Virus record (IMG/VR): IMGVR_UViG_2643221642_000002
Coordinates: 1 to 64,000 of that record
DNA from: a virus
Strand: one strand, 5' to 3'
DNA length: 64,000 bases
Position 1 is the first letter of the stretch. Each line of letters begins with the position of its first letter. The notes below the pieces were generated by a model. It saw only the letters and a list, made by a program, of their open reading frames with translations, made no database searches and was not told the DNA's origin. A program made the position numbers and the translations under genes. Below are positions 5,775 to 64,000 of the stretch, one piece after another.

Positions 5775-6623
5775 TCAGTCGATCTTGATGAAGGGCACGG
5801 CGCCCGAGGTGACGCGCGGCAACACACCGTCCCACTTGGCGATGGCCTGCTGCTGCATGATCTGCGGATTGGCGCGCAGGGCCTGGCCGCGGATGGTCAG
5901 CGCCTGGGCGTCACCCTCGGCCTCGGCGACCTTGCGGCGCTTCTCCGCCTCGGCCACAGCGGCCTCGGCGTTGGCCTTCTGAACGTCCTGGTCCGCCCGG
6001 GCCCGCGCCAGGATCGACGTCGTCACGACCTCGGGGAAACGCGGCGCGCCCGACCATTCCAGCCGGGTGATCTCGATGCCGTCGCCGCGCCAGCGGTTCG
6101 AGACCTCGCTGAAGGCGTCGCGGGCGATCTTCTGGTAGCCGCCGCCCAGCATCGACTCGACGGGCATGGTGGCCGCCGACCGCGCCACGGCCGTGCGGAC
6201 CGCGTTGCGGATCTGGTTCTCCAGCAGGTAGTCCAGGTTGGCCCGGTACTTGGTGTAGACGCTGGGCGCGGCCGTCGGCAGGACGCGGACGCCGATATTG
6301 ATGTCGCCCTTGATCTCCAGGCCGTTCTTGTCGACGAAGACCAGCTCCTCGTTTTCGCCGCCATCACCGTTGGTCTCGCGGGTGTAGCTGTATTGGCGTT
6401 CGATCACCGGATACTGGAAGATGCGCTCACCGGGCATGCGCAGGTGCCAGCCGGTGGCAAGGGCGTCGGCGGCCACGCCGGGCGCGCCGCCGGTCGGGAA
6501 GGCGCGGAACTTCACGCCGACACTGCCCGGCTCGACGGTCGTCGAGTGACATCCGACGAAGCCCAGCAGGGCCACGGCGCTGACGCCGATCAAGATGAAG
6601 CGCACCGCGCTGTTCGTGCTCAT
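5775..6623 (-). CDS. SPFH/band-7 (prohibitin/HflC-like) domain lipoprotein
   Basis: 282 aa from the ATG at 6621-6623 (GGAGAG SD). Signal peptide with lipobox LLGFVGC, then an SPFH-domain body and a coiled-coil C-terminus (…AEAAVAEAEKRRKVAEAEGDAQA…). Confidence 0.7.
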   Translation of the reverse strand: MSTNSAVRFILIGVSAVALLGFVGCHSTTVEPGSVGVKFRAFPTGGAPGVAADALATGWHLRMPGERIFQYPVIERQYSYTRETNGDGGENEELVFVDKNGLEIKGDINIGVRVLPTAAPSVYTKYRANLDYLLENQIRNAVRTAVARSAATMPVESMLGGGYQKIARDAFSEVSNRWRGDGIEITRLEWSGAPRFPEVVTTSILARARADQDVQKANAEAAVAEAEKRRKVAEAEGDAQALTIRGQALRANPQIMQQQAIAKWDGVLPRVTSGAVPFIKID

Positions 6624-9194: not shown

Positions 9195-9880
9195 GCGGCG
9201 CTCCTTTGGGCGTGGATGTGGGCCAGCAGCTGGTGGCCCAGGTGTTCGGTGAAGGCGGGCGGGATCGCCTCGGACAGCTCGTCGAGCGTCATCCAGTCGA
9301 TGCCCATGGCCTCGCTGGCGGCGGCGTTGTGGCCGCCCTCCCAGACGTCGCGCGTGCCCCGGCCGCCGCGCTTGGCGGCGCGGTTGCGGGCATGGCCGCC
9401 ATAGACGCCGATGACCGGCTTGCGGTGGACGCACGGGCCTGGCGCGCTGATCGCGATGTTGCTCTCGAACAGGCGGTGACGCTCGAGGTGGTGGCCCTGG
9501 GCCCCGAGGCCGAACATCGAGCCGCACAGCTTGATCGGTTCGATCATGTCGAACGCGGCCATCTCGACGTTCTCGATGACGTAGGGCAGGCCCAGGCCCT
9601 GCAGGATCTTGCGGATGCGGCCGATTTCCTGGGGCCGACCCTTCGCGCCCTTGGCGTGGCGCAGGGAGCTGTACCCCTGGCACTCAGGGCTGGCGTGCAC
9701 GGCGTCGGCCGCGGCGTAGAAGCCGGGCGCCAGGCCCCAGACGTCGGCCTGCATGAACTGGAACGGGTAGTTGGGCTGCGGGTCCCAATCGACGCCGATG
9801 ACGTCGAACCCGGCCTGGTGGTAGCCCATGGCCACCCCGCCGGCTTTGCAGAAGAGGTCGATCAAGACGGGCCGGGTCAT
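9191..9880 (-). CDS. Short DNA cytosine-5 methyltransferase-like protein
   Basis: 229 aa with C5-MTase motifs: I (LFCKAGGVAMG), IV (HASPECQGYS, the catalytic PC motif), VI (YVIENVE). Unusually short, with no obvious target-recognition domain. Confidence 0.7.
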   Translation of the reverse strand: MTRPVLIDLFCKAGGVAMGYHQAGFDVIGVDWDPQPNYPFQFMQADVWGLAPGFYAAADAVHASPECQGYSSLRHAKGAKGRPQEIGRIRKILQGLGLPYVIENVEMAAFDMIEPIKLCGSMFGLGAQGHHLERHRLFESNIAISAPGPCVHRKPVIGVYGGHARNRAAKRGGRGTRDVWEGGHNAAASEAMGIDWMTLDELSEAIPPAFTEHLGHQLLAHIHAQRSAA

Positions 9881-12249
9881 TGCACCAGCTCGAAATCAGG
9901 GGCCTCGAGGTAGGGCTGGTCCTCGGTGCGGACGGCCAGGGCCAGGGCCAGCGGCTGAACCCATATCGGCTCGTTCGACAGGATGAAGCTCGTCCCCGTC
10001 ATCGCCATCAGCAGGGTCTTGCCCATGACGGAAGCGATCGCCGTCGCCGAGTCCGAGGGCACGGCGTTGCCGATGCGCTCGCGCTTGTCGGCGTCGCTCT
10101 TGCCCTCCAGCTGGAAGAACCAGGCGTCCTCGAGGTTGAAGAGAGACTGGAGCGCGGCCAGCTCGAGGGTGGTGAACGGGCGGTGCCAAGTGCCATCCAG
10201 CGCGCGGATCACCGCGACCAGGCGGTCCTTGGCGTCCGGCAGCGCCAGGGCGCGCATCACCTGGGCGTCGGGCAGCACGACCCTGGGGTCGCCGACGGAC
10301 CAGAAGCCGTTGTTGTTCTTGGCGTAGGCCGGAACCGCGTTCGAGGCGTTGCGCCACGGCACGACCCCATAGTGGCCCTGGTTGGCGTAGGTATCGCGGT
10401 CCTTGTGCGCTAGGCCGATCGGCCGCGGGTCCGCGACTGACCAGCGGCCGTTGTCCCACGGGTGGGCGTTGGCCAGGACCGCGCCGGTGGTGTCGGTGTA
10501 CTTGACCACGCCGTAGTGGTCGCAGCGCACGGTCTTGTAGGCGGTCAGCCCGATCGGGCGGGGATCGGCGACGCTCAACGCGCCCGAGCCGACTCGGTCG
10601 GAGCCCGTCACCGTCCCGGCCGATCCACGGTAGCCCACGACCCGCAGCTTGTTGCGGTGGCTGTTCTCGCCGAAGCCCGTGCGCGGGTCGGCGACCGAGA
10701 ACATGCCCTGCAGTGGCGAACGGGCGGTCGTCAGGACGCCGGCGGTGTCGCGCCAGCGCATGACACCGGCCTGGCCGGTGGCCCACAGCTCAACGCGAGG
10801 GTCAGCGACCGCATAGGCGCCGTCGCCCGTGGTGCTGGCGCCGATCACCGTCCTGGACGCGCCCCTGTAGGGCGTGACGAGGTACTTGGTGTGGACGTAG
10901 TCGCTGCCGGGGTGTCGCGGGTCGGCGACGGCGGCGAGAGCCCCGCGCGCAGAGGTCACGACCGGGCCGGTGTTCTCCCAGGGCACGATCCGATAGACGT
11001 TGCTGAAGCGCGGTCCCGTGTCCTTGAAGCGAGGATCACTGATCGCGTAGGGACCCGTCCCGACCGAGACGTCGCCCTTGATGCAGGGCGCTGAACAGCT
11101 CCAGCGGCGCACGCCCAATTGAACGGACTTGTGGTGGCCGTCGACGCGGGGATCCGCGACCGAAAACACGCCCTGGCCTGGCCGCCCCTCGCGCACGACA
11201 CCGGCCGTCGCGTTGAAGGCCTGAACGCCGTAGGCGCCGGGATGCCACTGGGCCGTCTCGCGCGGGTCCGCCACCGAATAGCGGCCGGTGGTCGCCTCGG
11301 CGTTGGCAGAGATCACGCCGGCGCTGGCGCCGTAGTGCAGGACGCCGAGCGTGCCGTCGCGCCAGGGGCGTTCGGGCATGATGCCGTAGTCGCGCAGGAC
11401 GCCGTCCTCGACCACGAGATCCTTCAGTGACCGCCAGTCCTTGCCGGCCTCGACGAAAGCCAGGCGCACCCAGGTCTGCCATTGCAGCTTGGGCATGCGG
11501 TGCATGTCCGGGGCCCGGGGATCATCGGGCAGCGGCAGCTTGTCCAGGACTTCGCCGACGCCACGCAGGCGCTGCTTCGGCGGCTCGTACAGGAAGGGTT
11601 GCACCTTCGCGGCGTGGCGGGCCACCAGCAGGAACCGCTTGCGGCTCTGGGCCAGGCCGCCCAGCTCGCCGCAGTCATGGGTCGTCTCGGCCACGGCGTA
11701 GCCGTAGTAGCGAAGCATCGAGATGATCTGGTCGAGCAGGTGGCGGCCGCGCGTCGCGATCCGGGGCACGTTCTCGAAAATGATCAGTTCGATCGGGTCG
11801 TCCTGATAGGCCTCCAGGGCGAGCCATAGGCAGCGCAGCGTCAGCTCGTTCAGCGCCTGGTACTTGACCGTCTTACTGACTTCCTCGGCCAGCAGGCCCG
11901 AGAAGCCCTTGCACGGCGCCGAGATGAACAGGATGTGCGGGTGCTTGTGCTGGAAGGCGGCGTGCAGATCCTGGGGCGTCGCCTCGACGAAGTCGGCTGG
12001 CGGGGCCTTGTCGTGGAAGCGGCGATACTGGTCGACCGTGAACAGGTCGCGGACCGTACCGGGTGTCCCGGTCATGCGTCCGAAGTCACGGATCGCTGCC
12101 GGATCGACGTCGATCCCACCGATGCAGTTGAAGCGCGCGCGCAGGTTGCCGACGCGGGCTTGGCCGTTGTTGAAGCCCCGGGCCCCCGCGCCCAGGCCGC
12201 AGGCCAGGTGGGCGTGGTTGATGTCGACGTCGACGACGAGGGAGCTCAA
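9877..12249 (-). CDS. DNA cytosine-5 methyltransferase with nine tandem ~40-aa SVADPR repeats in the target-recognition domain region
   Basis: Motifs I (LACGLGAGARGF), IV (FISAPCKGFSG), VI (IIFENVPRI) and X (RERIGNAVP) are present. Between motifs VIII and IX sit nine repeats (…SVADPRE…, …SVADPRV…, …ISDPRF…, …AVADPRH…, …AVADPRV…, …SVADPRT…, …SVADPRP… ×2, …SVGDPRV…). Start uncertain: TTG 12247-12249 (GGAGGG SD, TTGA overlap) or GTG 12304-12306. Confidence 0.75.
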   Translation of the reverse strand: MSSLVVDVDINHAHLACGLGAGARGFNNGQARVGNLRARFNCIGGIDVDPAAIRDFGRMTGTPGTVRDLFTVDQYRRFHDKAPPADFVEATPQDLHAAFQHKHPHILFISAPCKGFSGLLAEEVSKTVKYQALNELTLRCLWLALEAYQDDPIELIIFENVPRIATRGRHLLDQIISMLRYYGYAVAETTHDCGELGGLAQSRKRFLLVARHAAKVQPFLYEPPKQRLRGVGEVLDKLPLPDDPRAPDMHRMPKLQWQTWVRLAFVEAGKDWRSLKDLVVEDGVLRDYGIMPERPWRDGTLGVLHYGASAGVISANAEATTGRYSVADPRETAQWHPGAYGVQAFNATAGVVREGRPGQGVFSVADPRVDGHHKSVQLGVRRWSCSAPCIKGDVSVGTGPYAISDPRFKDTGPRFSNVYRIVPWENTGPVVTSARGALAAVADPRHPGSDYVHTKYLVTPYRGASRTVIGASTTGDGAYAVADPRVELWATGQAGVMRWRDTAGVLTTARSPLQGMFSVADPRTGFGENSHRNKLRVVGYRGSAGTVTGSDRVGSGALSVADPRPIGLTAYKTVRCDHYGVVKYTDTTGAVLANAHPWDNGRWSVADPRPIGLAHKDRDTYANQGHYGVVPWRNASNAVPAYAKNNNGFWSVGDPRVVLPDAQVMRALALPDAKDRLVAVIRALDGTWHRPFTTLELAALQSLFNLEDAWFFQLEGKSDADKRERIGNAVPSDSATAIASVMGKTLLMAMTGTSFILSNEPIWVQPLALALAVRTEDQPYLEAPDFELVQ

Positions 12250-12566
12250 TGTGCGCCCTCCGACAGGGCGACGACGCCAGCGACCCTCACGCGCAGTTCC
12301 CTGCACATGGCAGGTCCAGTGTCGGGCTTGCCGGAGGCGTGGCCCAACGAAAAGGCGTCGGCGTCGAAGTGGCCGATCACCGCCTGCTGGCAGGCCAACG
12401 AGATCAGGTAGTCGGCGTGGACAACACCTGCTTCCGGGATCGTGAGCAGGTCGACGACCGGCGGCGCGTCGCCTTCGTCAGCGCGGATCCGCCGTTCGGC
12501 TTCCGCAAAGAGGTCCGCCAGCTGCGCGCGGGTGATCGTGAGCGTGGTGATGCTAAGGAGGGCCAC
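12246..12566 (-). CDS. Hypothetical protein
   Basis: 106-aa ORF with a GTG start; coupled to flanking genes. Confidence 0.45.
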   Translation of the reverse strand: MALLSITTLTITRAQLADLFAEAERRIRADEGDAPPVVDLLTIPEAGVVHADYLISLACQQAVIGHFDADAFSLGHASGKPDTGPAMCRELRVRVAGVVALSEGAH

Positions 12567-50845: not shown

Positions 50846-53737
50846 ATGGCCCTGGGGATCGCGGACTTCACGGCGCAACTGGCCGCTCTCCAGGCCCAGT
50901 TCAAGGCCGGCACGATCGACGAAGACGGTCTGAGCGACGGCCTGCGCGATCTGTGGACGGCGTCGGAGAACATTCCGGCGCTGTTCGACCAGATGCAGCA
51001 GGTCATCGCGATCAGGGCGACGATCCTGACGTCGCTCCAAGCGGCTCTGAACTTGAAGGGTGAAGTCGCGAGCGTAAGCGCCCTGCCGGCGGTAGCGCCC
51101 GACGGCGACACGTATCAATTGGTGAACGCCGCTGATCCGCAGGACGGCTTTCTCTATCGACGGGTGGCCGGCGCATGGACAAACATTGGCCGTCTCCGTG
51201 GTGCGCGGGGAGCCAGCGCTTTCGACGTCGCGGTCGAGGTGGCTGAAGAGGCCGGGGAAGTGCCTCCAGCCGACGAAGAGGCCTGGATCGCATCACTGAA
51301 GCAGCCTGCGCTGGACGCCGCTGCGACAGCAGACGCAGCGGCGGAGAACGCCGACGCAAAGGCAGCCCTGGCCAATACGAAGGCTGGCCTCGCTAACGAC
51401 GCGGCGACGACCGCCGACGAAGCGGCCGCCCTCGCCAACACTAAGGCCGGTTTGGCGAACGACAAAGCCGCCCTCGCGCAAGGGGTTGTCGATGCAGCGG
51501 CTACGCTCCTGGCAGCTAAGGACACTGCTGTGGTGGCCGCCGGCACCGCGACTGACAAGGCTGGCCAAGCCGCTGACGCTCGCGATGCAGCTCTCGCGGC
51601 GCAGAGCAACGGCACTGAAGCACTTGCCTCGCTGAACTTCCTCCTGCGGGGGATCGCTGGGCCCAACATCAGGATGGGCGACCCGGTCGGGAACTATATA
51701 TTTGATCTGTCCCCGGACGGTCTCTTCGCGCGGCTGGTCGGCGGGTCTGTCACGGACGCGGCGTTCGACAGTGCGCTACTTGAAGACGTGCTGGCGCTGC
51801 GGACGCTCCGCCGCCTGATACGATACATTCCTGGGGCTGGCCTGGAGATCGGCGACCCGGTTGGGGCGTTCACCTTCCAGCTCGGTGCGGACGGCTCTCT
51901 GGTCCTGCCCGGCGCGTCGGTTGGCGCTGCAAATCTTCAGCTTGGGGCCGTGGGCGACGCCGCTCTGAACCCGGCACTGCTCGACGATATCCTGGCGATC
52001 CGCGCGCTGCGGACGTTGATCAAGGTGGTTCCTGGGGGGGGGCTCAAGATCGGCGATCCAGCCGGCGCCTTCACGTTCCAAATCGCCGCTGACGGAAGTC
52101 CGACCGCGTCGATCAGTGCGGGCGCTGTCGGCGATAGCGCGCTTTCGGCCGCGCTGTTTGAAGACATGTTGGCGCTGCGGGCGCTGCGCCAGATTGTGCG
52201 CTTCTCACCCTCGGATGGCCTGCAAATCGGGTCTCCCTCTGGTGACTTCACGATCAAGGCCGGGGCGGACGGGAAGCTCGTTTTCACGTTCGCGAACGGG
52301 ACCGTTACGCGGTCGACCTTGGCGACGGATGTCGCGCCGTTCGTTCGCGAAAAGATCGCCAGTTCCGTGCCCGGCCTGGTCTACGCAAAGACCATCAGCA
52401 CTAAGCGCCAGGTCGTCCGGGTGACCGGAGCTGGCGAGGCGACGATCTCCGACGGGACGGCGAACGACGACTATCCCCAAATGGTCGGCGAGGCCGTGCG
52501 TCTCACCTCCGACCGTGACGGCGGCACGGTTCGCGCAATGCGGATGAGCGTCGACGGCAAGAACCTGATCACTGAGCTTGGGTCGACCAAGGTCTACATC
52601 ATCGTGGGTTATGGTCAGAGCCTGTCGATCGGCACGTCGAACTCCGCCCGTTTCGCGCTGACCACGGCCAACGCGGCATCGGGTGTGCTGATGTTCAACC
52701 GAGGTGTCCGGATCATTCCAGGCACGCCGGCCGTCACCGACGTCGTCAACGCGACAGACATCGACCACCTCGTGCCGCTGGCGGCGGGTCTGGACGGGTC
52801 CGCTTATGGGCAGACCCACGTCGAGAGCCTGGCCTACAAACTGTTCGCCGCCTCTAGCCTTCGGTGCATCGGCTTGGCGGCTGGCGTTGGCGGGCAGAGC
52901 TACACCTCCCTGAAGAAGGGAACGGTTCCGTACGCCAACATGATCGCCGCCGTTCAGCGCGCGCGAGACGTGTTGGCGGGCCTTGGCTACGACTGCGAAG
53001 TTGTCGTGACCTGGCAGCACGGGGAGGCGAATACCGGTACCTCGCGAGCCGTCTACAAGGGCTATCTCGCCGAGCTTTCGTCCGACTTGAACGCCGACAT
53101 CAAGCCCATCACAGGTCAAGCCGCGGTTCACCTGTTCGGCGGCCAATCGCCTTCGCTCAGCCAATCCCAGGTCCCGTTGGCGCTGTGGGAGGCGGGGAAG
53201 GAAAATCCGCTCATCCATTGCGTCGGGCCGCTCTACCAATTTCCGCTATCCGACAGCCAGCACCCGACCTCGGTTGGCTACTATCACCTCGGTGAAGAGT
53301 ACTGGAGGCCCTTCAAAGCCGTCGTCGTGGACGGCGGGACCTGGAAGCCGCTGCAACCGGTGTCGGCGACGCTCAGTGGATCTGACATCGACCTGCTGTT
53401 CGAGGGGCAAGTCGGCAACGTCGTGTTCGAGACGACTGACGTCGCGGCCATCACGAATTACGGCCTCGAATACTTCGACGCCTCGGGTTCGCCGCCGGCC
53501 ATCTCTTCGGTCACCACGATCGCGGGCGGCGTGCGGGTCACGCTGTCCACCGCGCCCACGGGCTCGGGCAAGGTCTTGCGCGGGGCGTGGACAGCGCCAG
53601 GCGCGACCACGTCGCCTCAGAACTCCATCCCTGGGGCGAGAACGAACCTCGCTGACCAGGACACGCTCGTCTCTGGCTATACCGGTAGCAAGGCGCTGCC
53701 GAAGCGGTCGGTCATTTTTGAAATCCCCGTCACCTAG
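50846..53737 (+). CDS. Tail fibre protein with internal repeats and a C-terminal SASA/SGNH-type esterase-like domain
   Basis: N-terminal Ala-rich coiled region; three ~60-aa repeats (…LRTLRRLIRYIPGAGLEIGDPVGAFTFQLGADGS… ×3). C-terminal domain has YIIVGYGQSLSIGTSN (GQSN-like) and VVTWQHGEANTG (W-Q-G-E-S-D-like), as in sialate O-acetylesterase-type domains. Confidence 0.65.
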   Translation: MALGIADFTAQLAALQAQFKAGTIDEDGLSDGLRDLWTASENIPALFDQMQQVIAIRATILTSLQAALNLKGEVASVSALPAVAPDGDTYQLVNAADPQDGFLYRRVAGAWTNIGRLRGARGASAFDVAVEVAEEAGEVPPADEEAWIASLKQPALDAAATADAAAENADAKAALANTKAGLANDAATTADEAAALANTKAGLANDKAALAQGVVDAAATLLAAKDTAVVAAGTATDKAGQAADARDAALAAQSNGTEALASLNFLLRGIAGPNIRMGDPVGNYIFDLSPDGLFARLVGGSVTDAAFDSALLEDVLALRTLRRLIRYIPGAGLEIGDPVGAFTFQLGADGSLVLPGASVGAANLQLGAVGDAALNPALLDDILAIRALRTLIKVVPGGGLKIGDPAGAFTFQIAADGSPTASISAGAVGDSALSAALFEDMLALRALRQIVRFSPSDGLQIGSPSGDFTIKAGADGKLVFTFANGTVTRSTLATDVAPFVREKIASSVPGLVYAKTISTKRQVVRVTGAGEATISDGTANDDYPQMVGEAVRLTSDRDGGTVRAMRMSVDGKNLITELGSTKVYIIVGYGQSLSIGTSNSARFALTTANAASGVLMFNRGVRIIPGTPAVTDVVNATDIDHLVPLAAGLDGSAYGQTHVESLAYKLFAASSLRCIGLAAGVGGQSYTSLKKGTVPYANMIAAVQRARDVLAGLGYDCEVVVTWQHGEANTGTSRAVYKGYLAELSSDLNADIKPITGQAAVHLFGGQSPSLSQSQVPLALWEAGKENPLIHCVGPLYQFPLSDSQHPTSVGYYHLGEEYWRPFKAVVVDGGTWKPLQPVSATLSGSDIDLLFEGQVGNVVFETTDVAAITNYGLEYFDASGSPPAISSVTTIAGGVRVTLSTAPTGSGKVLRGAWTAPGATTSPQNSIPGARTNLADQDTLVSGYTGSKALPKRSVIFEIPVT

Positions 53738-58100: not shown

Positions 58101-59291
58101 CTATCGCGTCGGCGTCGGCATGCCGATCTTGGAAAGGGCGACGATTGCGTTCAAGTCCGGCGGACCGTCGTCCTTCACTACGCCGTCGACAGAGGGCCGG
58201 AACAGCGCCTGCAGGATGATGGCCCGGTCGGTCGACTCCAGCGAGCCCTTCTGGATCAGCGCCAGGTAGGCGTTGGCCATGACGGCCCGTTCGTCGGCGT
58301 CCGTTCGCAGGTGGTGCTCGCTGAGATAGAGGCGCGTCAGGATGCGTGCGATCCACAGCAGCAGGGCGGCGAACAGCGTCAGCCCAGCACCCACCACGAT
58401 CAGAACCGGCGTCGGCACGGTGATCAGCTCGTGGAGCTTGTCGGCCGCCTGGTAGAAGACGAACAGGATCGCGACGGCCGCGCCGGCGAAGTAGAACCGC
58501 AGCATGCGTAGGTGCTGAGCCTCTTTCGCCTTGTGGATGCGAGACTTGCGTTTCCAGTACGTCACCGGAGCCTCGAGCCCGAGCTTTTCGGCATAGGCTA
58601 GCTCGGTGGTGTCGATGCGCAGGATGGCCTCGTCGACCCTGACCTTCATCTCGGTCCAGGCATCTTCCTTCGAAGCGATCGCCGCCTTGGCCTGGGAGAT
58701 CACTATGCGGATGGTTTCGTTGGCCAGCTTCTTCCTGGAATTCAGCACCTTGCCAAAATGCTCGACCAGGGCCTTCTCCGTGACCTCGAACCGGCGTGTC
58801 AGCTCGCCCATGGTTCGGCGCGACTGGGTTCTTTCGGCGGATAGATCCTTGATCAGCTGGTCGACGGGAACACGAGCAGGGTAGGCGAAGGCCATGATCC
58901 CCCGCAGCGCCGCCATGCCGCGTATCTCACCGAAGCTCACGAACTGACGGTAGTAGGCGTAGGCGGCGACGGCCGCCTCATCGCCTTCGCTACGGCGTAT
59001 TTCCAGGATCCGGCGCCCTTCGTCGCTACCGGAATAGACGAGCGGCCCGCTATGAAAGCGCGACTCCACCTGCGGCGTAATCACATGGAGCGGTTGTCCG
59101 TTCTGGGCGTTGCGCAACACCTCGTTGTTCAGCTCGTGGAACATCTGCGAGGCGGCGTTCCACGCGCTTTGCGTCAGGCCGCGACCGTTCATCCAGTCCC
59201 ATTGAGTCCGTTCCGCCTCGAGCCAGGCGCCCAGCTTCTGATGATCGTCGAACGGGATGCTGACGTCGCCGACAGTGAGTAGGGTGGACAT
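58101..59291 (-). CDS. Membrane protein: N-terminal cytoplasmic domain, two TM helices, short C-terminal domain
   Basis: 396 aa from the ATG 59289-59291. TM helices LRFYFAGAAVAILFVFYQAA and VLIVVGAGLTLFAALLLWIARIL. Distal gene of a three-gene coupled operon. Confidence 0.55.
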   Translation of the reverse strand: MSTLLTVGDVSIPFDDHQKLGAWLEAERTQWDWMNGRGLTQSAWNAASQMFHELNNEVLRNAQNGQPLHVITPQVESRFHSGPLVYSGSDEGRRILEIRRSEGDEAAVAAYAYYRQFVSFGEIRGMAALRGIMAFAYPARVPVDQLIKDLSAERTQSRRTMGELTRRFEVTEKALVEHFGKVLNSRKKLANETIRIVISQAKAAIASKEDAWTEMKVRVDEAILRIDTTELAYAEKLGLEAPVTYWKRKSRIHKAKEAQHLRMLRFYFAGAAVAILFVFYQAADKLHELITVPTPVLIVVGAGLTLFAALLLWIARILTRLYLSEHHLRTDADERAVMANAYLALIQKGSLESTDRAIILQALFRPSVDGVVKDDGPPDLNAIVALSKIGMPTPTR

Positions 59292-59293
59292 GC

Positions 59294-59752
59294 TCAAGCG
59301 CCCAGTTTGGGTAGGTTCACCGAAGCCCACGCGCCGACAATCGCGTCAAGCACCTGCTCGGCGCTGACCTCGACCACGACGTCGCCAGGCCAGGCGTCGG
59401 TCTTGCCGATCCACTCGCCGTCATCGGTGCTGTCGGCCCGGATCGGGTTGTGCGGCGTCGACTCGAACTCGGCGGTCCCGAACCCTTCCGGCGCCAATGG
59501 CAGCAGGTGGCGCTTCACCAGTTCCTGCAGGGTGGCGGTGCCCAGAAAGCGCCCGTCGTAGACCGTAGAGTTGGGGCCTGGCTGCACCTCGGCGAACTTG
59601 TCGATGTTCCAGCGGTCGAAGTAGTCGTCCAGGATCTCGCCGTCAGCGAACCCCCAGTTGGCGAACAGGCAGCTCGCATAGAGCCGCACCGGGCCCGGAC
59701 CGAGATCCTTGCTCGGATCGACGCTTCTCAGGTCTTGCGCGAAGGTGTTCAT
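59294..59752 (-). CDS. Hypothetical protein (middle gene of the operon)
   Basis: 152 aa from the ATG 59750-59752; separated by 2 nt from the downstream start. Confidence 0.5.
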   Translation of the reverse strand: MNTFAQDLRSVDPSKDLGPGPVRLYASCLFANWGFADGEILDDYFDRWNIDKFAEVQPGPNSTVYDGRFLGTATLQELVKRHLLPLAPEGFGTAEFESTPHNPIRADSTDDGEWIGKTDAWPGDVVVEVSAEQVLDAIVGAWASVNLPKLGA

Positions 59753-60267
59753 CAGACTGGCTCCTTGTCCATGACGACCGTGACCTCGTAGTCGTCGGCC
59801 GCCAGCCACTGCGCAGCCCGGCTGATGGCCGCGTCCACCATGGCGGTGAAGAAGTCGGCGCCCGAGGCGTCCAGGGCCTCCAGCTGCGCCTCGTCGAAGC
59901 GGAGATCGTGATCGGGCAGGCGCAGCAGGCGAAGCGCGTGGCGACCGCCCAGCGGCCGGCGCAAGAGGCCGCGCCCCGCATGCTCACCCCGTCCGCGCCG
60001 CGCATCCTCCTCGAGATCCTTAGCTAGGCCCTCCACAGCGCTCTCTACGCGCCATAGGGCGTCCCGCACCGGGTTCGGATAGCCCTCCCGGCTCGACCGC
60101 TCCCAGGAAACCACCTGGCTGTTGGTCACCTCGACGTCGCGGACGCGCAGGGCGTTGGCCAGGCCGACGATGTGGCGGCGCTCCATGCAGCAGGCGACGC
60201 GCAGGGCGCGGCTCTCGGGCCCGGTGAGCGGGCGGCCGCGCGAGCCGATCAGGGTGCGGAAGGTCAT
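59752..60267 (-). CDS. Hypothetical protein (first gene of the operon)
   Basis: 171 aa from the ATG 60265-60267; TGATG coupling with the next gene. Confidence 0.45.
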   Translation of the reverse strand: MTFRTLIGSRGRPLTGPESRALRVACCMERRHIVGLANALRVRDVEVTNSQVVSWERSSREGYPNPVRDALWRVESAVEGLAKDLEEDARRGRGEHAGRGLLRRPLGGRHALRLLRLPDHDLRFDEAQLEALDASGADFFTAMVDAAISRAAQWLAADDYEVTVVMDKEPV

Positions 60268-60313
60268 AGGCGGTGGTTCCTTGCTGAAGCCCCGCGCCTG
60301 CGGGGCAGATGGA

Positions 60314-60631
60314 TCAACGGACGGTGGAAAGGGGCGGCGGCGTGGGCAGCGGGTCTTTGCCGTCAGCCGCGCGCCGGCGGTTAACGGCGACCACCAGCTG
60401 GCTGACGGCCTCATCGGCGATGGCGTAACCCTGGCTGGCGTCTCGGAAGTCGCTCAGCTTGAAAAAGTGCGCGACGCTGTAGTCGCCATCCACGGCGATC
60501 AGCACGAAGAGGCGACCGTCGAGGTGGCCGCTCCATGTGAGGCCCGGATGCTTGATCCCAGCCGCGGTGACAAGCGCATCGCCTTCCTTGGTGAGTTCCT
60601 GCAGCGCGCGCTGTTCGGGAAGTAGGTACAC
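60314..60631 (-). CDS. Hypothetical protein
   Basis: 105-aa ORF with GGAGG SD; preceded by a partial copy of the repeated intercistronic element. Confidence 0.5.
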   Translation of the reverse strand: MYLLPEQRALQELTKEGDALVTAAGIKHPGLTWSGHLDGRLFVLIAVDGDYSVAHFFKLSDFRDASQGYAIADEAVSQLVVAVNRRRAADGKDPLPTPPPLSTVR

Positions 60632-60639
60632 GGCCGCCT

Positions 60640-60680
60640 CCGAGGCAGACTGGGTGATAGGGTAGGGGCGGATTAGGCCG
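60640..60680 (-). repeat. Partial copy D of the repeat element (GGCCTAATCCGCCCCTACCCTA box only)
   Basis: Shares the stop-codon box and ACCCTA with copies A-C but lacks the hairpin part. Confidence 0.5.
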
Positions 60681-61065
60681 AAGGGTCCCGCGGACGCTTG
60701 CCGAGGCTGGCCAGCATCTGACGATCACGAGCGAGCCGCCAACCATAGAGGTAGAAGGCGCCGCCCAGGGCGCGAGCGTCAGGATCCTGGCTGAGGTAGC
60801 CGTCCAGTTGGGCCATGGACTGCTCGATGTCGCTCGTCTGAATCCAGACGCCCCAGAACACATTCCAGCCCTCGCGCAGGGCCAGCTCGGCCTCGTTGAC
60901 GTTCCAGCTCACCCAGCCGTGGGAGGTCCGGCACCGGGTCGCGGCCACTACGGCCGAAACGACGTCGTCGTAGATGACCTGGGCGGCCGCCCGGCCGCCT
61001 TGCAGCGTCGCGCCCAGGGCCAGGGTGCGCTCGGTGGCCTCCGAATAGGTCTGCGGGATGTCCAT
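60673..61065 (-). CDS. Hypothetical protein
   Basis: 130 aa; the stop codon lies inside the GGCCTAATCCGCCCC box. Confidence 0.5.
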   Translation of the reverse strand: MDIPQTYSEATERTLALGATLQGGRAAAQVIYDDVVSAVVAATRCRTSHGWVSWNVNEAELALREGWNVFWGVWIQTSDIEQSMAQLDGYLSQDPDARALGGAFYLYGWRLARDRQMLASLGKRPRDPSA

Positions 61066-61357
61066 GGTCTGCTCTCGACTTTCACGGGCAATAGGGGCGG
61101 ATCAGGGCAGAGGGTCAAGGCTCCACCGTTCGGCAAAACGCGTCCACCGTTCGGCTTGGAACGGTCGCCCGAAACGGTCAGCTCTGGGCGGTGGTCGCAA
61201 AGCCTTGCGGGGCAAGGCCTAGGACCGTGCGAACGGTAGCCATTCCGGCGCCCGAATAGAGGGGTACGCCCGCCGCTTTCGCAGCGGCGCGGGCTTGGCG
61301 GATAACGGTCGACTTGGAAGGCATGGGCGTATGCTCCAGGTTGAGATGAGATAGCGC

Positions 61358-61798
61358 TCAGGCGAGCGGCGGATGAGACGGAAGAGGTAGACCCCGGCGG
61401 CAGGCTGTCGTGAACCTGAACCTCCCAGCCCACAGTACGTGCTCGGCGTCTCGACAGCTCCAGTCGCCTTCCAAATGCGGAAGGCAACGAGACCCGAAAG
61501 GCGGCTGTCTGAGGATAGGCGTCAGGGCTTCGATGGCCGTCCAGTAGCGCTGAACCGCGCGTTCCCGGAGCTGCTTGCCTTCCCTGCGCAGGCTCCAAGC
61601 GATGGAGGACCCGCCGCCGAGGCCCCGGGATGCCTCATAGGCGCTGCGCGAGTTTATCGAGTCTGACATGGCGATGGAGGCCAGCTGGGCGGCCTCGGGC
61701 GATCCATTTTGCGCGGCGAAGTCCATCAGCCGCTCACAAAGTTCGGTGATCGCGTCGGCAGCTTCTTTTCCGGGGGAGCGAACGTTACGCTTTCTCAT
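61358..61798 (-). CDS. Hypothetical protein
   Basis: 146-aa ORF. The N-terminal ~100 aa are protein-like; the C-terminal tail is low-complexity. Preceded by a full repeat element. Confidence 0.4.
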   Translation of the reverse strand: MRKRNVRSPGKEAADAITELCERLMDFAAQNGSPEAAQLASIAMSDSINSRSAYEASRGLGGGSSIAWSLRREGKQLRERAVQRYWTAIEALTPILRQPPFGSRCLPHLEGDWSCRDAEHVLWAGRFRFTTACRRGLPLPSHPPLA

Positions 61799-61872
61799 GG
61801 CGGTAGTTCCTTGATCTCCCGCGCCGCATGCGCGGGGCCGATTGGGCTGTAGGGTTGGGGCGGATTAGGCCT
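61799..61872 (-). repeat. Intercistronic repeat element, copy A (~70 bp)
   Basis: On the coding (minus) strand: GCC-TAA-TCCGCCCC…ACCCTACAGC-CAATC-GGCCCCGCGCATGCGGCGCGGGAGATCAAGGAACTACCGCC-ATG. Contains the upstream stop codon, a 7-bp GC hairpin (CCCGCGC-ATGCG-GCGCGGG) and an AAGGAAC RBS. Confidence 0.7.
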
Positions 61873-63136
61873 TGGGGTACGTCAGAGCGCCGGCCGGGAA
61901 GGTCAGCTCGACCTCGACCCGCTCGGCGTCCTGGATGACGGTGTGGACCTTGAAGCCGGCGTGGACCTTGAAGCCGGCGGCGCGGGCCGCCTTGCGCTCG
62001 GCCTGGGCCTTCTCGCGCGCTTCCTTCGCCGCCTTCTGGGCCAGCAGATCCTCGAAACGGGCGATGATGTCGCCGGCCGTCGGATAGATGTTCTCCAGGC
62101 TGTGGTGACCAAGGATGATCGCCCGCACCTCGGCAATGCGCTCAGCCTCGGCCTGCGTCGGCGCCCGGATGGGCCAGCCCTTCTCGTAGCGCAGGCCCTT
62201 GATGTTGATCTCAGCTTCCAGGCGCCGTCGCTCCTCGGCCTTGTCCTTGGCCCAGGTGACGCGCTCGACCAGGTCGGCGCCCAGCAAGCGCGGCGTGACG
62301 TCCGCCAGCCAACGCGTGGGCTGGAAGCTGAAGGTGCTCGACGCCTCCATCTCCACCAGGTGGCGATAGGTCCAGTGGTTGGACTCGACACGGTTCGAGG
62401 CGCGCTGATCTTCCTGACGCTGGAGGACGCAGAACGAGCAGCCCAAGCGGGAAGAGCCGGCGTCATATGCCAGGTGAAGCGGCAGATCGTGGCGGTGGTG
62501 GTAGGCGAACACCTCCTCGGTCTTCACCTCGACCGCCGGGTGCCAGGTCATCAGCGTGGTGCCGTCGTCCTTGCACCAGCGAGGCTCGGGCTTGGAGATG
62601 GGCGTGTTGGCGCGGCTGGCGCTCTCCTCGCGCCGGATCCCGACCACGGAAATGATCGTCTGCCCGGGGAATTCCTTTTGGAGGGCGGGACTGATTACCT
62701 GCTGCTTCATCTCGGCGGTGCAGAACCGCAACGACGCGCTCGACCAGGGGCCGATCAGGTTGAAGACCTCCAGATTGGCGTAGCGGCGCTTGCCCTCGGC
62801 GAAACGCGCCTCCCAGCGCGAGATCATGTCGTGCTTGTTGTGCCGGACCACCATCAACGGGACGTCGAGCGTGCTCGCGATCGACTGGACCATGTCCAAC
62901 GTCACGTCCCATTCGATCCGCCCCAGGTCAGCATGGATGGCCCGGCGCAGCGCCTTGGGGTGGCCGAGCATGTCGAGCAGTTGGTTGGCCTTGTGCGCGG
63001 CCACGGCCGAGTCCTTGCCGCCGCTCAGGCTGTAGACCACGACCGCGCCGGCGCAGATGGCGGCCAGGGTTTGATCGTCGATCGCGATGTCGAGGGTGGC
63101 GCAGGTCTCGACAGCCTGGGCGGTGGTCATACGCAT
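61865..63136 (-). CDS. PP-loop ATP pyrophosphatase, PAPS-reductase-like family protein
   Basis: N-terminal VVVYSLSGGKDSAVAAH (the SGGxDS PP-loop); ~250-aa PAPS-reductase-like core; coiled-coil C-terminus ending in a duplicated AGFKVH. Confidence 0.65.
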   Translation of the reverse strand: MRMTTAQAVETCATLDIAIDDQTLAAICAGAVVVYSLSGGKDSAVAAHKANQLLDMLGHPKALRRAIHADLGRIEWDVTLDMVQSIASTLDVPLMVVRHNKHDMISRWEARFAEGKRRYANLEVFNLIGPWSSASLRFCTAEMKQQVISPALQKEFPGQTIISVVGIRREESASRANTPISKPEPRWCKDDGTTLMTWHPAVEVKTEEVFAYHHRHDLPLHLAYDAGSSRLGCSFCVLQRQEDQRASNRVESNHWTYRHLVEMEASSTFSFQPTRWLADVTPRLLGADLVERVTWAKDKAEERRRLEAEINIKGLRYEKGWPIRAPTQAEAERIAEVRAIILGHHSLENIYPTAGDIIARFEDLLAQKAAKEAREKAQAERKAARAAGFKVHAGFKVHTVIQDAERVEVELTFPAGALTYPKA

Positions 63137-63205
63137 CTGGCGTTCCTTGGTCTCCCGCGCCGCATGCGCAGGGCTGATTGTGCTGTAGGGTCAGGGCGGA
63201 TTAGG
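63137..63205 (-). repeat. Intercistronic repeat element, copy B
   Basis: ~88% identical to copy A, in the same stop-hairpin-RBS-ATG arrangement. Confidence 0.7.
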
Positions 63206-63737
63206 CCGCCTGGTCCAAGTCGTAGGCGGGCAGCTCGTCGCGAGGATCGGCGTCGTTGTCGAACATCACGTAGTCGAAGCCCTGGGAGCGGGCCCAGGCC
63301 AGCGGGGCGTAGAGACCTTCGAAGGCGTCGATCTCGCGGTCGCTGTGCTCATGGGCGTAGATCACGGCGCCGCAGCCGGTCGGACCGCCCGAGACAGGCC
63401 AGTCCTTCAGCGGGAGAGCGAGCAGGGTTTCCCACGTCGCTTGCGGGATATGCGCCGTCGACAGGACGACGGTCCGCCTCGTCTCGAACTCCTGGGCGGT
63501 GGTCGTGACGGTGGTGCGCTCGAGCCCGGCCGCATCGAGGATCGCGTTCGCCACCTGAAGGGCCGCTTCGCGTGGAAGGTAGATCATGCAGCGGGTCAGC
63601 CACCCGGTCTTGTTGAGGGGCTGGAGGCGGATGTCATCGTCAGGCCCGAACGATTCGACGCTCAGGCCGCACGGGGTGCTGGAGCCGTTGCGGCCGAGGT
63701 TGAAATAGCCGGGGATGCGCGAGAACTTGATCAACAT
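63201..63737 (-). CDS. Hypothetical protein
   Basis: 178-aa ORF flanked on both sides by the repeat element. Confidence 0.5.
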   Translation of the reverse strand: MLIKFSRIPGYFNLGRNGSSTPCGLSVESFGPDDDIRLQPLNKTGWLTRCMIYLPREAALQVANAILDAAGLERTTVTTTAQEFETRRTVVLSTAHIPQATWETLLALPLKDWPVSGGPTGCGAVIYAHEHSDREIDAFEGLYAPLAWARSQGFDYVMFDNDADPRDELPAYDLDQAA

Positions 63738-63800
63738 GGCGGTGGTTCCTTGGTCTGCCCGCGCCGCATGCGCGGGGCTGATTGAGCTGTAGGGTCTAGG
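63738..63800 (-). repeat. Intercistronic repeat element, copy C (variant 5' box GCCGCCTAGACCC)
   Basis: Same hairpin and RBS core; here the upstream stop is TAG. Confidence 0.65.
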
Positions 63801-64000
63801 CGGCCAGATCGCGGCGAACGCCGATGAACGCGGCGCAGCGCGGGGCGCCGTCGCGGGTCATGCCGGCGTAGCGTACCGTGCCCAGCTGGCCGGGCAGATT
63901 GGCCCGGAGGGTCAGGAGGCGCGTCGCCAGGGTGCGCGACATCGCGACAGGGGCGGAGAACACCCGGCCGCCCATCTTGAGCGTGACGGACCCCGCCGCA
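63796..64000 (-). CDS. Partial CDS (C-terminal end only; continues beyond the window)
   Basis: In-frame C-terminus …TLKMGGRVFSAPVAMSRTLATRLLTLRANLPGQLGTVRYAGMTRDGAPRCAAFIGVRRDLAA ending at TAG 63796-63798. Followed by a variant copy of the repeat element. Confidence 0.4.
   Translation of the reverse strand, partial: AAGSVTLKMGGRVFSAPVAMSRTLATRLLTLRANLPGQLGTVRYAGMTRDGAPRCAAFIGVRRDLAA

Follow-up and report, generated by a model that had tools for sequence, protein, structure and literature searches.

A hairpin and Shine-Dalgarno element at the gene junctions of a hypervariable accessory operon in a lambda-like Caulobacter prophage: a putative RNA module and recombination linker

The sequence analyzed in this work is a stretch of 64,000 nucleotides (nt), in the following called the window, which comprises positions 1 to 64,000 of the IMG/VR record IMGVR_UViG_2643221642_000002 and represents a temperate, lambda-like siphovirus prophage of Caulobacter sp. 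Root343. It was classified as a prophage because genes for a gpA-type terminase, a lambda-type portal, a protease-capsid fusion, a tape-measure protein and a gpJ-like protein are present on the plus strand; early genes, helix-turn-helix (HTH) regulators, a primase and DnaB occupy the left part. Near the right edge, successive genes on the minus strand (designated by letters) are separated by a repeated intergenic element, to which we refer as the joint. The surroundings of these genes could be followed on contig L020, which encodes the same proteins as the window and reaches 10 kb past its right edge (a position in the window equals 73738 minus the L020 coordinate).

Read in 5' to 3' direction, a joint consists of the stop codon of the upstream gene, ACCCTACAGCNCAATCAGCC, the hairpin CCCGCGC-AUGCG-GCGCGGG, five variable bases, AAGGAAC, five to seven bases and the ATG of the following gene. 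Three full copies of 64 to 76 nt are located at three minus-strand gene junctions of the window, and joints overall cover about 60 to 75 nt; the predicted energy of the RNA hairpin ranges from -13 to -16 kcal/mol for the copies in the window. In general terms, the region in front of the hairpin is made up of a C-rich and G-poor unit of about 27 nt (ACCCTNCAG-N-CCAATCAGCC), which is found once or twice per junction. The upstream open reading frame (ORF) usually ends in or beside this box unit, typically with GCC followed by the stop codon, which is often provided by the first box copy, and the box GGCCTAATCCGCCC represents a first, degenerate copy of the CCAATCAGCCC box in front of the hairpin. 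The remaining part contains a 7-bp GC hairpin with an AUGYG loop, 5 variable nt, A(A/C)GGAAC as Shine-Dalgarno (SD) sequence, 4 to 8 nt and the ATG.

Copy 1 (63735-63798, minus strand) lies between gene E, which encodes a small ATP-dependent DNA-ligase-like protein of 269 amino acids (aa; 3' end at 63796-64000 in the window, C-terminus DLAA), and gene F (63201-63737, 178 aa, DUF5983, 7.7e-16). It contains the TAG stop codon (63796-63798), the box ACCCTACAGCTCAATCAGC (63777-63795), the stem with AUGCG loop (63758-63776), AAGGAAC (63745-63751) and the ATG (63735-63737), and is matched at 63737-63791 with 65.7 bits by a covariance model (R1) built from 24 copies; its hairpin has a predicted energy of -15.1 kcal/mol. 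Copy 2 (63134-63207) separates F from gene G (61865-63136, 423 aa), the product of which belongs to the PP-loop/PAPS-reductase family and is BrxP/SspD/DndC-like. Here, a degenerate first box (GGCC-TAA-TCCGCCC) supplies the stop codon (63201-63203) and is followed by ACCCTACAGCACAATCAGCC, a hairpin with one U·G pair (63154-63172, -13.2 kcal/mol), AAGGAAC (63142-63148) and the ATG (63134-63136), with a covariance-model match at 63134-63187 (59.9 bits). Copy 3 (61796-61871), at the junction of G and H (61358-61798, an orphan gene of 146 aa missing from all relatives), has the same GGCC-TAA-TCCGCCC sequence (stop 61865-61867), a second box, the hairpin at 61818-61836 (-15.4 kcal/mol), AAGGAAC at 61806-61812 and the ATG at 61796-61798 (match 61798-61851, 66.3 bits). 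All these features are on the minus strand. The earlier note on this DNA had placed GCC TAA inside a box at every junction; this is true except for the junction at 63796, which ends with GCC-TAG directly followed by ACCCTACAG and lacks the GGCCTAATCCGCCC box.

A fourth copy had been taken for a merely partial one. This was a mis-reading, as it is the left half of an element that is split by ORF K, and the right half at 60265-60312 had been overlooked. The left half (60644-60679, minus strand; GGCC-TAA-TCCGCCCCTACCCTATCACCCAGTCTGCC) comprises two boxes and the stop codon (60673-60675) of gene J (60673-61065, 130 aa, without family match) and breaks off exactly at the boundary between box and hairpin, which corresponds to the BLASTN breakpoint at L020 13097. 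The right half, also on the minus strand, consists of a box remnant (CCATCTGCC), the hairpin GCCCCGC-AGGC-GCGGGGC (60289-60306, -16.2 kcal/mol), AAGGAAC (60276-60282) and the ATG (60265-60267) of gene L (59752-60267, 171 aa), and was detected by the covariance model at 60268-60319 with 29.6 bits (E=8.6e-6). ORF K (60314-60631, minus strand, 105 aa), which has a GTG start and its own GGAGG SD sequence at 60637-60641, is therefore positioned within the fourth element between box and hairpin; it has no homologue and no family match and was not found in the relatives described below. In three of these relatives (L079 at 9920-10000, L077 and L078), the junction of J and L is formed by one intact element with the arrangement GGCC-TAG-TCCGCCC..ACCCTA..CCAATCAGCC-hairpin-AAGGAACCACCGCCTATG. 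In addition, the 112-nt gap between gene i (61178-61324, 48 aa, minus strand, just upstream of J) and J contains the degenerate minus-strand box GCCCTGATCCGCCC at 61095-61108 with two mismatches and no hairpin after it, which looks like a decayed joint. Five further hairpins are found in L020 to the right of the window, four of them before genes and one in the operon leader. The leader hairpin (L020 6395-6446) is an additional GC-AUGCG-GC hairpin, which caps a longer stem (GGUCCUGG...CCAGGAC) and lies 44 nt ahead of the joint of the first gene; L079 shares it with L020, and it is missing from L076.

The repeats in the window far exceed chance expectation. With up to three mismatches, the 19-nt hairpin CCCGCGCATGCGGCGCGGG occurs three times, always on the minus strand (63758-63776, 63154-63172 and 61818-61836), compared with a mean of 0.65 in shuffled sequences, and none of 100 shuffles reached three. 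Likewise, GGCCTAATCCGCCC was found four times with up to two mismatches (0.85 expected; four copies in none of 100 shuffles), and AAGGAAC-N7-ATG twice (0.06 expected). AAGGAAC is located directly ahead of a start codon only at the four element sites of the 64-kb window. An independent repeat search returned a 66-nt family with ungapped identities of 100, 91 and 70%, the lowest value being caused by a 1-nt indel. The presence of the same element at the minus-strand junctions, as it had been read from the sequence, is thus borne out.

Using the covariance model, we identified 42 copies at six loci (100 kb, both strands), all 42 on the sense strand of the operon, with 8 to 11 copies per operon. 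The four copies of the window are all located in the operon and elsewhere in the window there is only one 12-bit match with an E-value of 0.61. The loci were collected in several ways: a degenerate pattern search yielded two IMG/VR contigs with 9 to 11 copies each, and three further contigs, among them L079, a prophage at the same tig-clpP site, were reached through homologues of protein L, which matches a Caulobacter sp. Root343 protein with 100% identity. A homologue of the PAPS-reductase gene led to a seventh and more distant genome, the prophage L082 beside tRNA-Thr. L082 has a diverged version of the joint with the same CCAATCAGCC box, a CCCCGC-AAUGG/AAUCG-GCGGGG hairpin, ACGGAG as SD sequence and CCACCGCC-ATG. 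All other searches remained without additional members. The exact hairpin 20-mer had 19 matches in a collection with one genome per species, which were in unrelated contexts (Streptomyces and other high-GC organisms), and none in the Caulobacter species representatives; two long exact patterns had no match in viral contigs; a loop-degenerate pattern matched 52 metagenomic loci once each, with at most 31 bits in the covariance model, and these are coincidences in coding sequences. All 24 matches of a pattern of box plus generic hairpin in viral contigs are single intrinsic terminators with T-runs in lower-GC phages, and protein-based searches for relatives in viral contigs retrieved only the two contigs already known. 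Rfam contains no family for the element (cmscan of L020 4000-16000 at E<=1 gave two irrelevant weak hits), and an antisense partner of the CCAATCAGCC box was not present elsewhere in the window. The element family is rare in the searched collections.

A comparison of the distances within the joints revealed that the hairpin belongs to the downstream ribosome-binding site (RBS) and not to the upstream stop codon, as far as can be judged from the sequence. The spacing between stem and SD sequence is 5 nt in 34 of 40 copies and 6, 7 or 8 nt in the rest, while the spacer sequence itself varies (CCAGC, AGACC, AGATC, ACAGC, TCACC and others). The distance between SD sequence and ATG is 4 to 8 nt, the distance between stop codon and stem ranges from 7 to 60 nt, and 41 of the 42 copies share GGAAC. 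That the spacer keeps its length while its sequence is free to vary speaks for selection on the spacing and suggests a functional coupling of hairpin and ribosome binding. The parts of the "stop-hairpin-RBS" element named in the earlier note are therefore present, and what had been overlooked is that the hairpin is linked to the RBS that follows and not to the stop codon that precedes it.

Additional evidence for an RNA-level role comes from the stem. In an alignment of 42 copies, 95.5% of the stem cells are paired compared with 85.8% in shuffles and at most 62% in slid registers, and the covariation score of 0.236 (0.072 in shuffles) was reached in none of 500 shuffles. This is the one of the two stem alignments that was fitted to the covariance model. 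An independent ungapped alignment of 25 hairpins had a similar outcome: 86.9% of the cells pair, compared with 77.7% in shuffles, and the covariation score was 0.243 versus 0.083, again reached in none of 500 shuffles. The fourth pair from the loop is GC in 20, AU in 7, CG in 5 and GU in 3 cases, and in one copy the stem comprises 8 bp and includes a flipped pair. Among the non-Watson-Crick cells of the stem, G·U or U·G was counted nine times and A·C or C·A twice, and this excess indicates that the sense strand, and hence the mRNA, is the strand that folds. Among the functions that had been offered for the element, an RNA-level role is favored by these comparisons.

The joints are embedded in an accessory operon of about 9.5 kb and about 15 genes on the minus strand, which is read inward from the prophage end, is convergent with the late, lysis and tail genes and sits at the attachment-site end of the prophage. 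Moving inward from the host side, L020 contains the host genes clpX, clpP and tig, two small ORFs, a gene for a SOS-response-associated peptidase (SRAP) and a 430-nt non-coding region before the operon starts; a sequence resembling a tRNA 3' fragment was recognized by eye to the right of the window, where ARAGORN detected no tRNA. A scan of L020 5700-16000 revealed TTGACG-16-TATGTT at 6313-6340, just outside the right edge of the window, as the sole promoter-like site. It is of the sigma-70 type and is kept in L079 and L076. The same interval contains nine terminator-like matches, none of them at a joint; just one is strong (12 pairs), namely the convergent terminator past the last operon gene. 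Because the only promoter-like site is located in the leader and no joint has a terminator-like match, the joints are most likely internal parts of a single transcription unit, which comprises the whole operon. The sequence comparisons identify it as a hypervariable accessory (cargo) operon of a lambda-like temperate Caulobacter siphophage, and the host is an alphaproteobacterium with a GC content of 67%. About 100 nt upstream of the operon promoter there is an AT-rich block of about 110 nt (…CGTACAGTACCGCATCGTTTTCAGTATTTTTTCAGATAGAAGCGGCGGGTCACTTCCCCGCATATCTATTACTGCCAGGAAGGACCCG; L020 6130-6240, equivalent to about 67500-67600 of the window), which contains a terminator-like hairpin, is nearly invariant in L079 and L076 and still recognizable in the distant L082; possible interpretations are an operator, an arm of the attachment site or a small-RNA region. 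The SRAP gene forms a module with a divergent ORF of 85 aa (L020 4903-6136) between the attachment-site end and the operon, and this module is missing from the otherwise collinear prophage L079.

The same element borders different genes in seven related phage or prophage contigs, and both the content and the order of the genes between the copies vary, so that the check proposed in the earlier note, a search for different genes between copies in related prophages, had a positive outcome. Gene D is located before E in the phage of the window and after E in L021, five genomes have G and L021 lacks it, F is missing from L076, a DUF4942 gene is common to L078 and L021 only, and H, K and M are unique to the window. 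Nor are the flanking genes related to each other: an all-against-all BLASTP comparison of the operon genes detected no intragenomic paralogues, which confirms that unrelated genes are joined by the element and excludes copies generated by a tandem duplication that includes coding sequence. A BLASTN comparison of L020 with its closest full relative L079 has internal breakpoints at L020 8182, 9156, 11736, 12393, 13097 and 13428, of which 8182, 13097 and 13428 are at element edges; breakpoint 9156 is 24 nt into gene E, and in L079 a joint directly precedes E. At the junction after G, which is followed by H in L020 and by H2 in L079, both 5' boxes are common and the sequences diverge from the hairpin onward together with the downstream genes. 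The insertion of K and the swap of H and H2 are two independent events at one and the same position, the boundary between box and hairpin. In line with this, copies that precede the same downstream gene resemble each other more in the 3' part of the element (0.70-0.74 versus 0.63-0.64), but not in the 5' box, and four genomes have an identical 5' part behind gene E, whatever gene follows. Therefore, we assume that hairpin, SD sequence, ORF, stop codon and box, in this order, constitute the working cassette. The idea of a modular joint with the same cassette border for each gene is in its core supported by the comparison of relatives, and the overall interpretation built on it is partly supported.

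Homologues of G with 61-62% identity are found in two other phages in overlapping gene strings without a joint, which suggests that the joint is a property of this type of operon and not of the cargo. Upstream ORFs end with GCC (Ala) before the stop codon in 20 of 36 junctions of L020, L021, L076, L077, L078 and L079, and several of them with Ala-Ala (DLAA in the ligase-like protein, QAA in the DUF5983 protein). This could reflect either ORF ends running into the ...GCC of the box or a C-terminal Ala-Ala signal. The hairpins of internal copies have an identity of 0.87 within a genome, and between lineages of 0.91 before the same gene and 0.85 before different genes; compared with the 37-68% identity of the neighboring proteins between lineages, this high conservation indicates that the element is held close to one consensus. 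Concerted evolution as cause can be rejected, as copies within a genome are no more alike than copies from different lineages (0.73, 0.72 and 0.70).

Gene L alone among the operon genes is shared by all seven genomes, and the hairpin before it is in every case a variant with another loop. The N-terminal half of its product resembles an Xre-type HTH by eye, and no HTH profile hit and no PDB hit were obtained. The distal genes M (59294-59752, 152 aa) and N (58101-59291, 396 aa, DUF6161, AbiZ-like), both on the minus strand, have no joints, and stop and start codons overlap or abut in this region (58101-59752). The remaining cargo is without family match. An RNA-binding or nuclease signature was not detected in the operon proteins, including A, B, C and L, by sequence searches against Pfam, PHROGs, NCBIfam, PADLOC and PDB. 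In the relative L078, an MT-A70 methylase gene next to a gene for a BglII-type endonuclease is located close to the operon, either on the other strand or past the last gene. Together with the AbiZ-like and the BrxP/SspD/DndC-like cargo, this prophage end looks like a defence or anti-defence island as judged from the gene content. Two further regions of the window attracted attention. Three diverged direct repeats of about 67 nt, 177 to 201 nt apart and with 64-75% identity, are found at 51828-52272 (plus strand) within an ORF of 963 aa downstream of the gpJ-like gene; they probably reflect a domain that is repeated in a tail-fibre protein, for which there is a weak SASA/esterase-like match. 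In the early-left region, the N-terminal part of an 809-aa ORF (9877-12306, minus strand) matches C-5 cytosine DNA methylases; a DUF5131 protein, an SPFH/Band-7 protein and a protein with an Rv2179c-like 3'-5' exoribonuclease domain are encoded nearby.

Considering the anatomy of the joint, its strand specificity, the stem covariation, the fixed spacing of hairpin and SD sequence, the confinement to a single operon and the mosaic cargo with swap points inside the element, all of which are directly observed, we prefer a reading in which the joint is a cis-acting, RBS-coupled intercistronic module that operates at the RNA level in one polycistronic mRNA and doubles as a linker for homologous recombination. 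We give this combination of functions about an even chance. Hairpin and SD sequence would act as one RNA unit that sets translation or stability of each cistron. With a distance of about 27 to 45 nt to the following AUG, the hairpin is placed at the border of the 30S footprint, and it could provide the same autonomous translation start for every captured ORF. It is possible that the unit serves as an operator for a trans-acting RNA-binding factor, that it forms a 5' cap left by endonucleolytic processing in the single-stranded CAAUCAG box, or that it is a block that uncouples a cistron from upstream ribosomes. At the same time, the 55-75 nt that recur at all joints and in related phages would offer portable homology for recombination, with a unit of hairpin, SD sequence, ORF, stop codon and box exchanged at the boundary between box and hairpin. 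The mosaic cargo would then be a consequence of the homology provided by the joints, with the proposed exchange at this boundary.

Several points weigh against this reading. Each functional step of the module is deduced from sequence. In silico removal or disruption of the hairpin did not change the predicted accessibility of the SD sequence (0.59 versus 0.56 and 0.59; p=0.07 and 0.85), and the simple idea that the hairpin keeps the RBS open is unsupported, as neither deletion of the hairpin nor complementation of an arm had an effect on this value. The copies are related and no independent samples, and concerted changes in both arms of inverted repeats can also arise by template-switch mutation without any selection on RNA. 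The leader copy of the hairpin has no RBS after it, and the loop is not universal, as the copy before gene L and the distant L082 have other loops. Only a handful of exchange events could be mapped, and gene boundaries are the expected breakpoints in phage mosaics anyway. Furthermore, no phage gene kept in all seven genomes resembles an RNA-binding or RNA-processing protein, and the sole universal operon gene, L, resembles by eye a DNA-binding HTH protein. A far-reaching extension of the preferred reading would be that the joints are the cis half of a plug-and-play cassette system, in which a trans-acting factor of phage or host reads the hairpin and the GGAAC in 5-nt distance on the mRNA and processes or gates each cistron in the manner of Csy4 insulators, with the boundary between box and hairpin as a preferred, possibly enzyme-assisted exchange point; the operon would then be an integrase-free, integron-like platform with which temperate phages capture and express defence and anti-defence cargo. 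We regard this as a speculative and rather unlikely scenario.

The mosaic cargo, the swap points at the elements and the tandem duplicated boxes, which resemble recombination scars, would also be expected if the repeats only promoted or recorded homologous cassette exchange and the hairpin had no role in expression, and the missing effect of hairpin removal on the predicted RBS accessibility fits as well. Homology alone, however, predicts neither a compensatory stem with a G·U excess on the sense strand nor a hairpin-SD spacer of fixed length and free sequence, and the fact that copies within a genome are no more alike than copies of different lineages gives no sign of a homogenization by frequent exchange, so that we consider a pure recombination linker unlikely. 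An equally low probability is assigned to the main rival, DNA-level regulator sites similar to the stoperators of phage L5, at which a repressor, with gene L as candidate, would bind the palindrome or the asymmetric CCAATCAGCC box and block cargo transcription in the lysogen. The sites are indeed asymmetric, oriented, intergenic and present in multiple copies, with one or two boxes at each junction, the 19-bp near-palindrome could plausibly serve as operator for a dimer, and L, the N-terminus of which looks Xre-like by eye, is encoded in all seven genomes. On the other hand, covariation of the arms at positions that vary among sites is unexpected for a protein operator, G·U prevails over A·C by 9 to 2, the SD spacing is fixed, the copies are restricted to one operon instead of being spread over the genome, and L had no HTH profile hit. 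Covariation and G·U excess disfavor a double-stranded DNA regulator site, as it had been proposed in the earlier note, in general.

The idea of a recombination site for the shuffling of cargo genes, in the strict sense of dedicated, site-specific sites of an integron-like cassette array, has some attraction, because a series of promoterless ORFs in the same orientation follows a single promoter, the repeat spans from stop to start, stop codons are often supplied by the repeat, and two independent events took place at the same boundary of box and hairpin. But no recombinase is encoded beside the array: the 6-kb stretch from the operon promoter to tig of the host, where such a gene had been suspected, contains only the SRAP gene, two small ORFs and the tRNA-like fragment recognized by eye, followed by tig-clpP-clpX of the host. 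The anatomy does not resemble attC either, as a 7-bp stem stands against an attC fold of 57-141 nt, a GTTRRRY core is missing, and the hairpin is placed relative to the downstream RBS and not to the 3' end of the cassette. We therefore think that this explanation is very unlikely. Similarly improbable is a transcriptional punctuation in which each joint is a promoter and/or an attenuating terminator like the promoter-early stem-loops (PeSLs) of T4-type phages. The layout of stop codon, conserved block with stem-loop, SD sequence and ATG matches that of a PeSL (PMC2839356), but a -35/-10-like pair is absent from all joints and the leader promoter is the sole promoter-like site, no hairpin is followed by a T-run (AGACC, CCAGC or similar sequences are found instead) and no terminator-like match falls on a joint; by inspection, there is also no conserved ECF-type -10 after GGAAC. 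A selfish palindromic repeat of the REP (repetitive extragenic palindromic) or MITE (miniature inverted-repeat transposable element) type that has spread into intergenic gaps is the least probable of all explanations. A short GC-rich palindrome repeated in intergenic DNA and the CTAC (GTAG on the other strand) near some copies would be in agreement with it. Against it, all 42 copies have one orientation, are typically 5 nt away from an SD sequence and belong to one operon type, none is found outside of the operon in the 64-kb prophage or about 4 kb of host DNA, the exact 20-mer is missing from the Caulobacter species representatives, the metagenome matches are single chance ones, and GTAG/CTAC is not conserved in the L021/L076 lineage. 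A REP-like repeat without positional preference, which the earlier note had named as an outcome that would speak against its view, is thus not what was found in the window and its flanks, where the copies keep to the operon, to its sense strand and to a fixed distance from the start codons.

Several known signals were also considered and rejected. By inspection, GGAAC could be the -35 of an ECF-type promoter, but a conserved -10 is missing; for a Caulobacter sigma-73 promoter the hexamer spacing is far too short; GANTC, the site of CcrM, is absent from the element, and the loop has no GGA as in CsrA sites. A 7-bp helix is too short for an RNase III site, judging from the generally known helix requirement of this enzyme. 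A lambdoid nut site, which is present once per early operon and combines an upstream boxA with a boxB stem of 5 bp whose GNRA-like pentaloop is bound by an N protein, does not agree with 8-11 copies per operon, a 7-bp stem, an AUGYG loop and a first operon gene that is not conserved between lineages; accordingly, no N-like protein encoded by the first gene is conserved between the lineages.

If the preferred reading is correct, a clade of phages would own a standard part that allows captured genes to be translated in an existing operon and offers at the same time homology for swapping. This would support the view that conserved intergenic linkers, and not random illegitimate recombination, organize the turnover of accessory genes. 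From a practical point of view, the covariance model is a handle for gene discovery, as anything between two joints is a candidate cargo gene, and the 31-nt unit of hairpin, spacer and SD sequence is a candidate for a context-insulating translation part for Caulobacter. The compact covarying hairpin and the fixed spacer also make the role of start-associated repeats directly testable.

Literature searches retrieved no description of the joint element, and we compared it with known systems of similar layout. Integron attC sites and the Vibrio cholerae repeats also flank promoterless ORFs in the same orientation behind one promoter, with imperfect palindromes as borders and variable cargo. In contrast, IntI, attI, the R''-L''/L'-R' architecture and the GTTRRRY core are missing here (the reverse complement of the SD sequence is GTTCCTT), and the palindrome, which is tied to the downstream RBS, is considerably shorter. 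The RNase III sites between the early genes of T7 and the synthetic Csy4 and RiboJ insulators are intercistronic, too, and RNase III needs a helix of about 20 bp. Like these, the joints are repeated intercistronic hairpins in a polycistronic phage mRNA that could define context-independent 5' ends, but differ from T7 sites by their stems of 7 bp, and we know of no processing enzyme or cleavage at joints. Stoperators of mycobacteriophage L5 and Cluster A phages are 13-bp asymmetric sites at which the repressor binds double-stranded DNA, are distributed genome-wide and have neither a hairpin nor a fixed spacing to an RBS. They share with the joints that many short asymmetric sites are located in short intergenic gaps and oriented with transcription, whereas the covarying stem and the restriction to a single operon argue against a membership in this group.

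The closest analogues, judged by layout, are the PeSLs of T4-type phages and the repeats of Cluster K mycobacteriophages known as start-associated sequences (SAS) and extended SAS (ESAS). In PeSL cassettes, recombination between copies, which yields insertions, deletions, replacements and mini-circles, was shown to be homologous, a strong sigma-70 promoter is combined with an AT-rich UP region, and the stem-loop terminates transcription, so that every ORF is transcribed as a separate unit (Arbiol et al. 2010, PMC2839356; Comeau et al. 2014, PMC4122927). Both PeSLs and joints are repeated intergenic motifs that reach from stop codon to ATG, contain a GC stem-loop and end with SD sequence and start codon, and both are concentrated in hyperplastic regions beside orphan genes and flank insertions, deletions and replacements that distinguish related phages. 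The comparative breakpoints and the insertion of K would fit a PeSL-type exchange by recombination between copies. However, the joints contain no promoter and no T-run, are C-rich instead of AT-rich, lie inside one polycistronic unit, have the hairpin locked 5 nt from the SD sequence, and are found without sequence similarity to PeSLs in a temperate lambda-like phage of a host with 67% GC. According to the consulted excerpts of Pope et al. (2011, PMC3203893), the SAS is a 13-bp sequence (GGGATAGGAGCCC) that overlaps the SD sequence, the ESAS has arms of 17 bp with a 4-13-bp spacer, and their function is thought to involve translation initiation. The likeness consists in an asymmetric SD-containing motif right before the starts of some non-structural genes, nearly always in one orientation and kept across the phage cluster, and in an imperfect inverted repeat that closely precedes the motif at about half of the sites or more. 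The same excerpts describe SAS/ESAS as spread over the whole right arm and do not report stem covariation or cassette exchange, whereas the joints are restricted to one operon, have A(A/C)GGAAC with a 7-bp (up to 8-bp) stem and a 5-nt loop located 5 nt before the SD sequence, show no sequence similarity to SAS/ESAS, and carry extra CCAATCAGCC boxes and an upstream stop codon embedded in the repeat. What appears to be new here is not a category but an intercistronic cassette joint that has no promoter and is locked to the RBS, in a temperate phage of an alphaproteobacterium. If our reading is true, this joint would take its place beside the T4-type PeSLs and the still unexplained SAS/ESAS as a counterpart without promoter from a high-GC, temperate phage.

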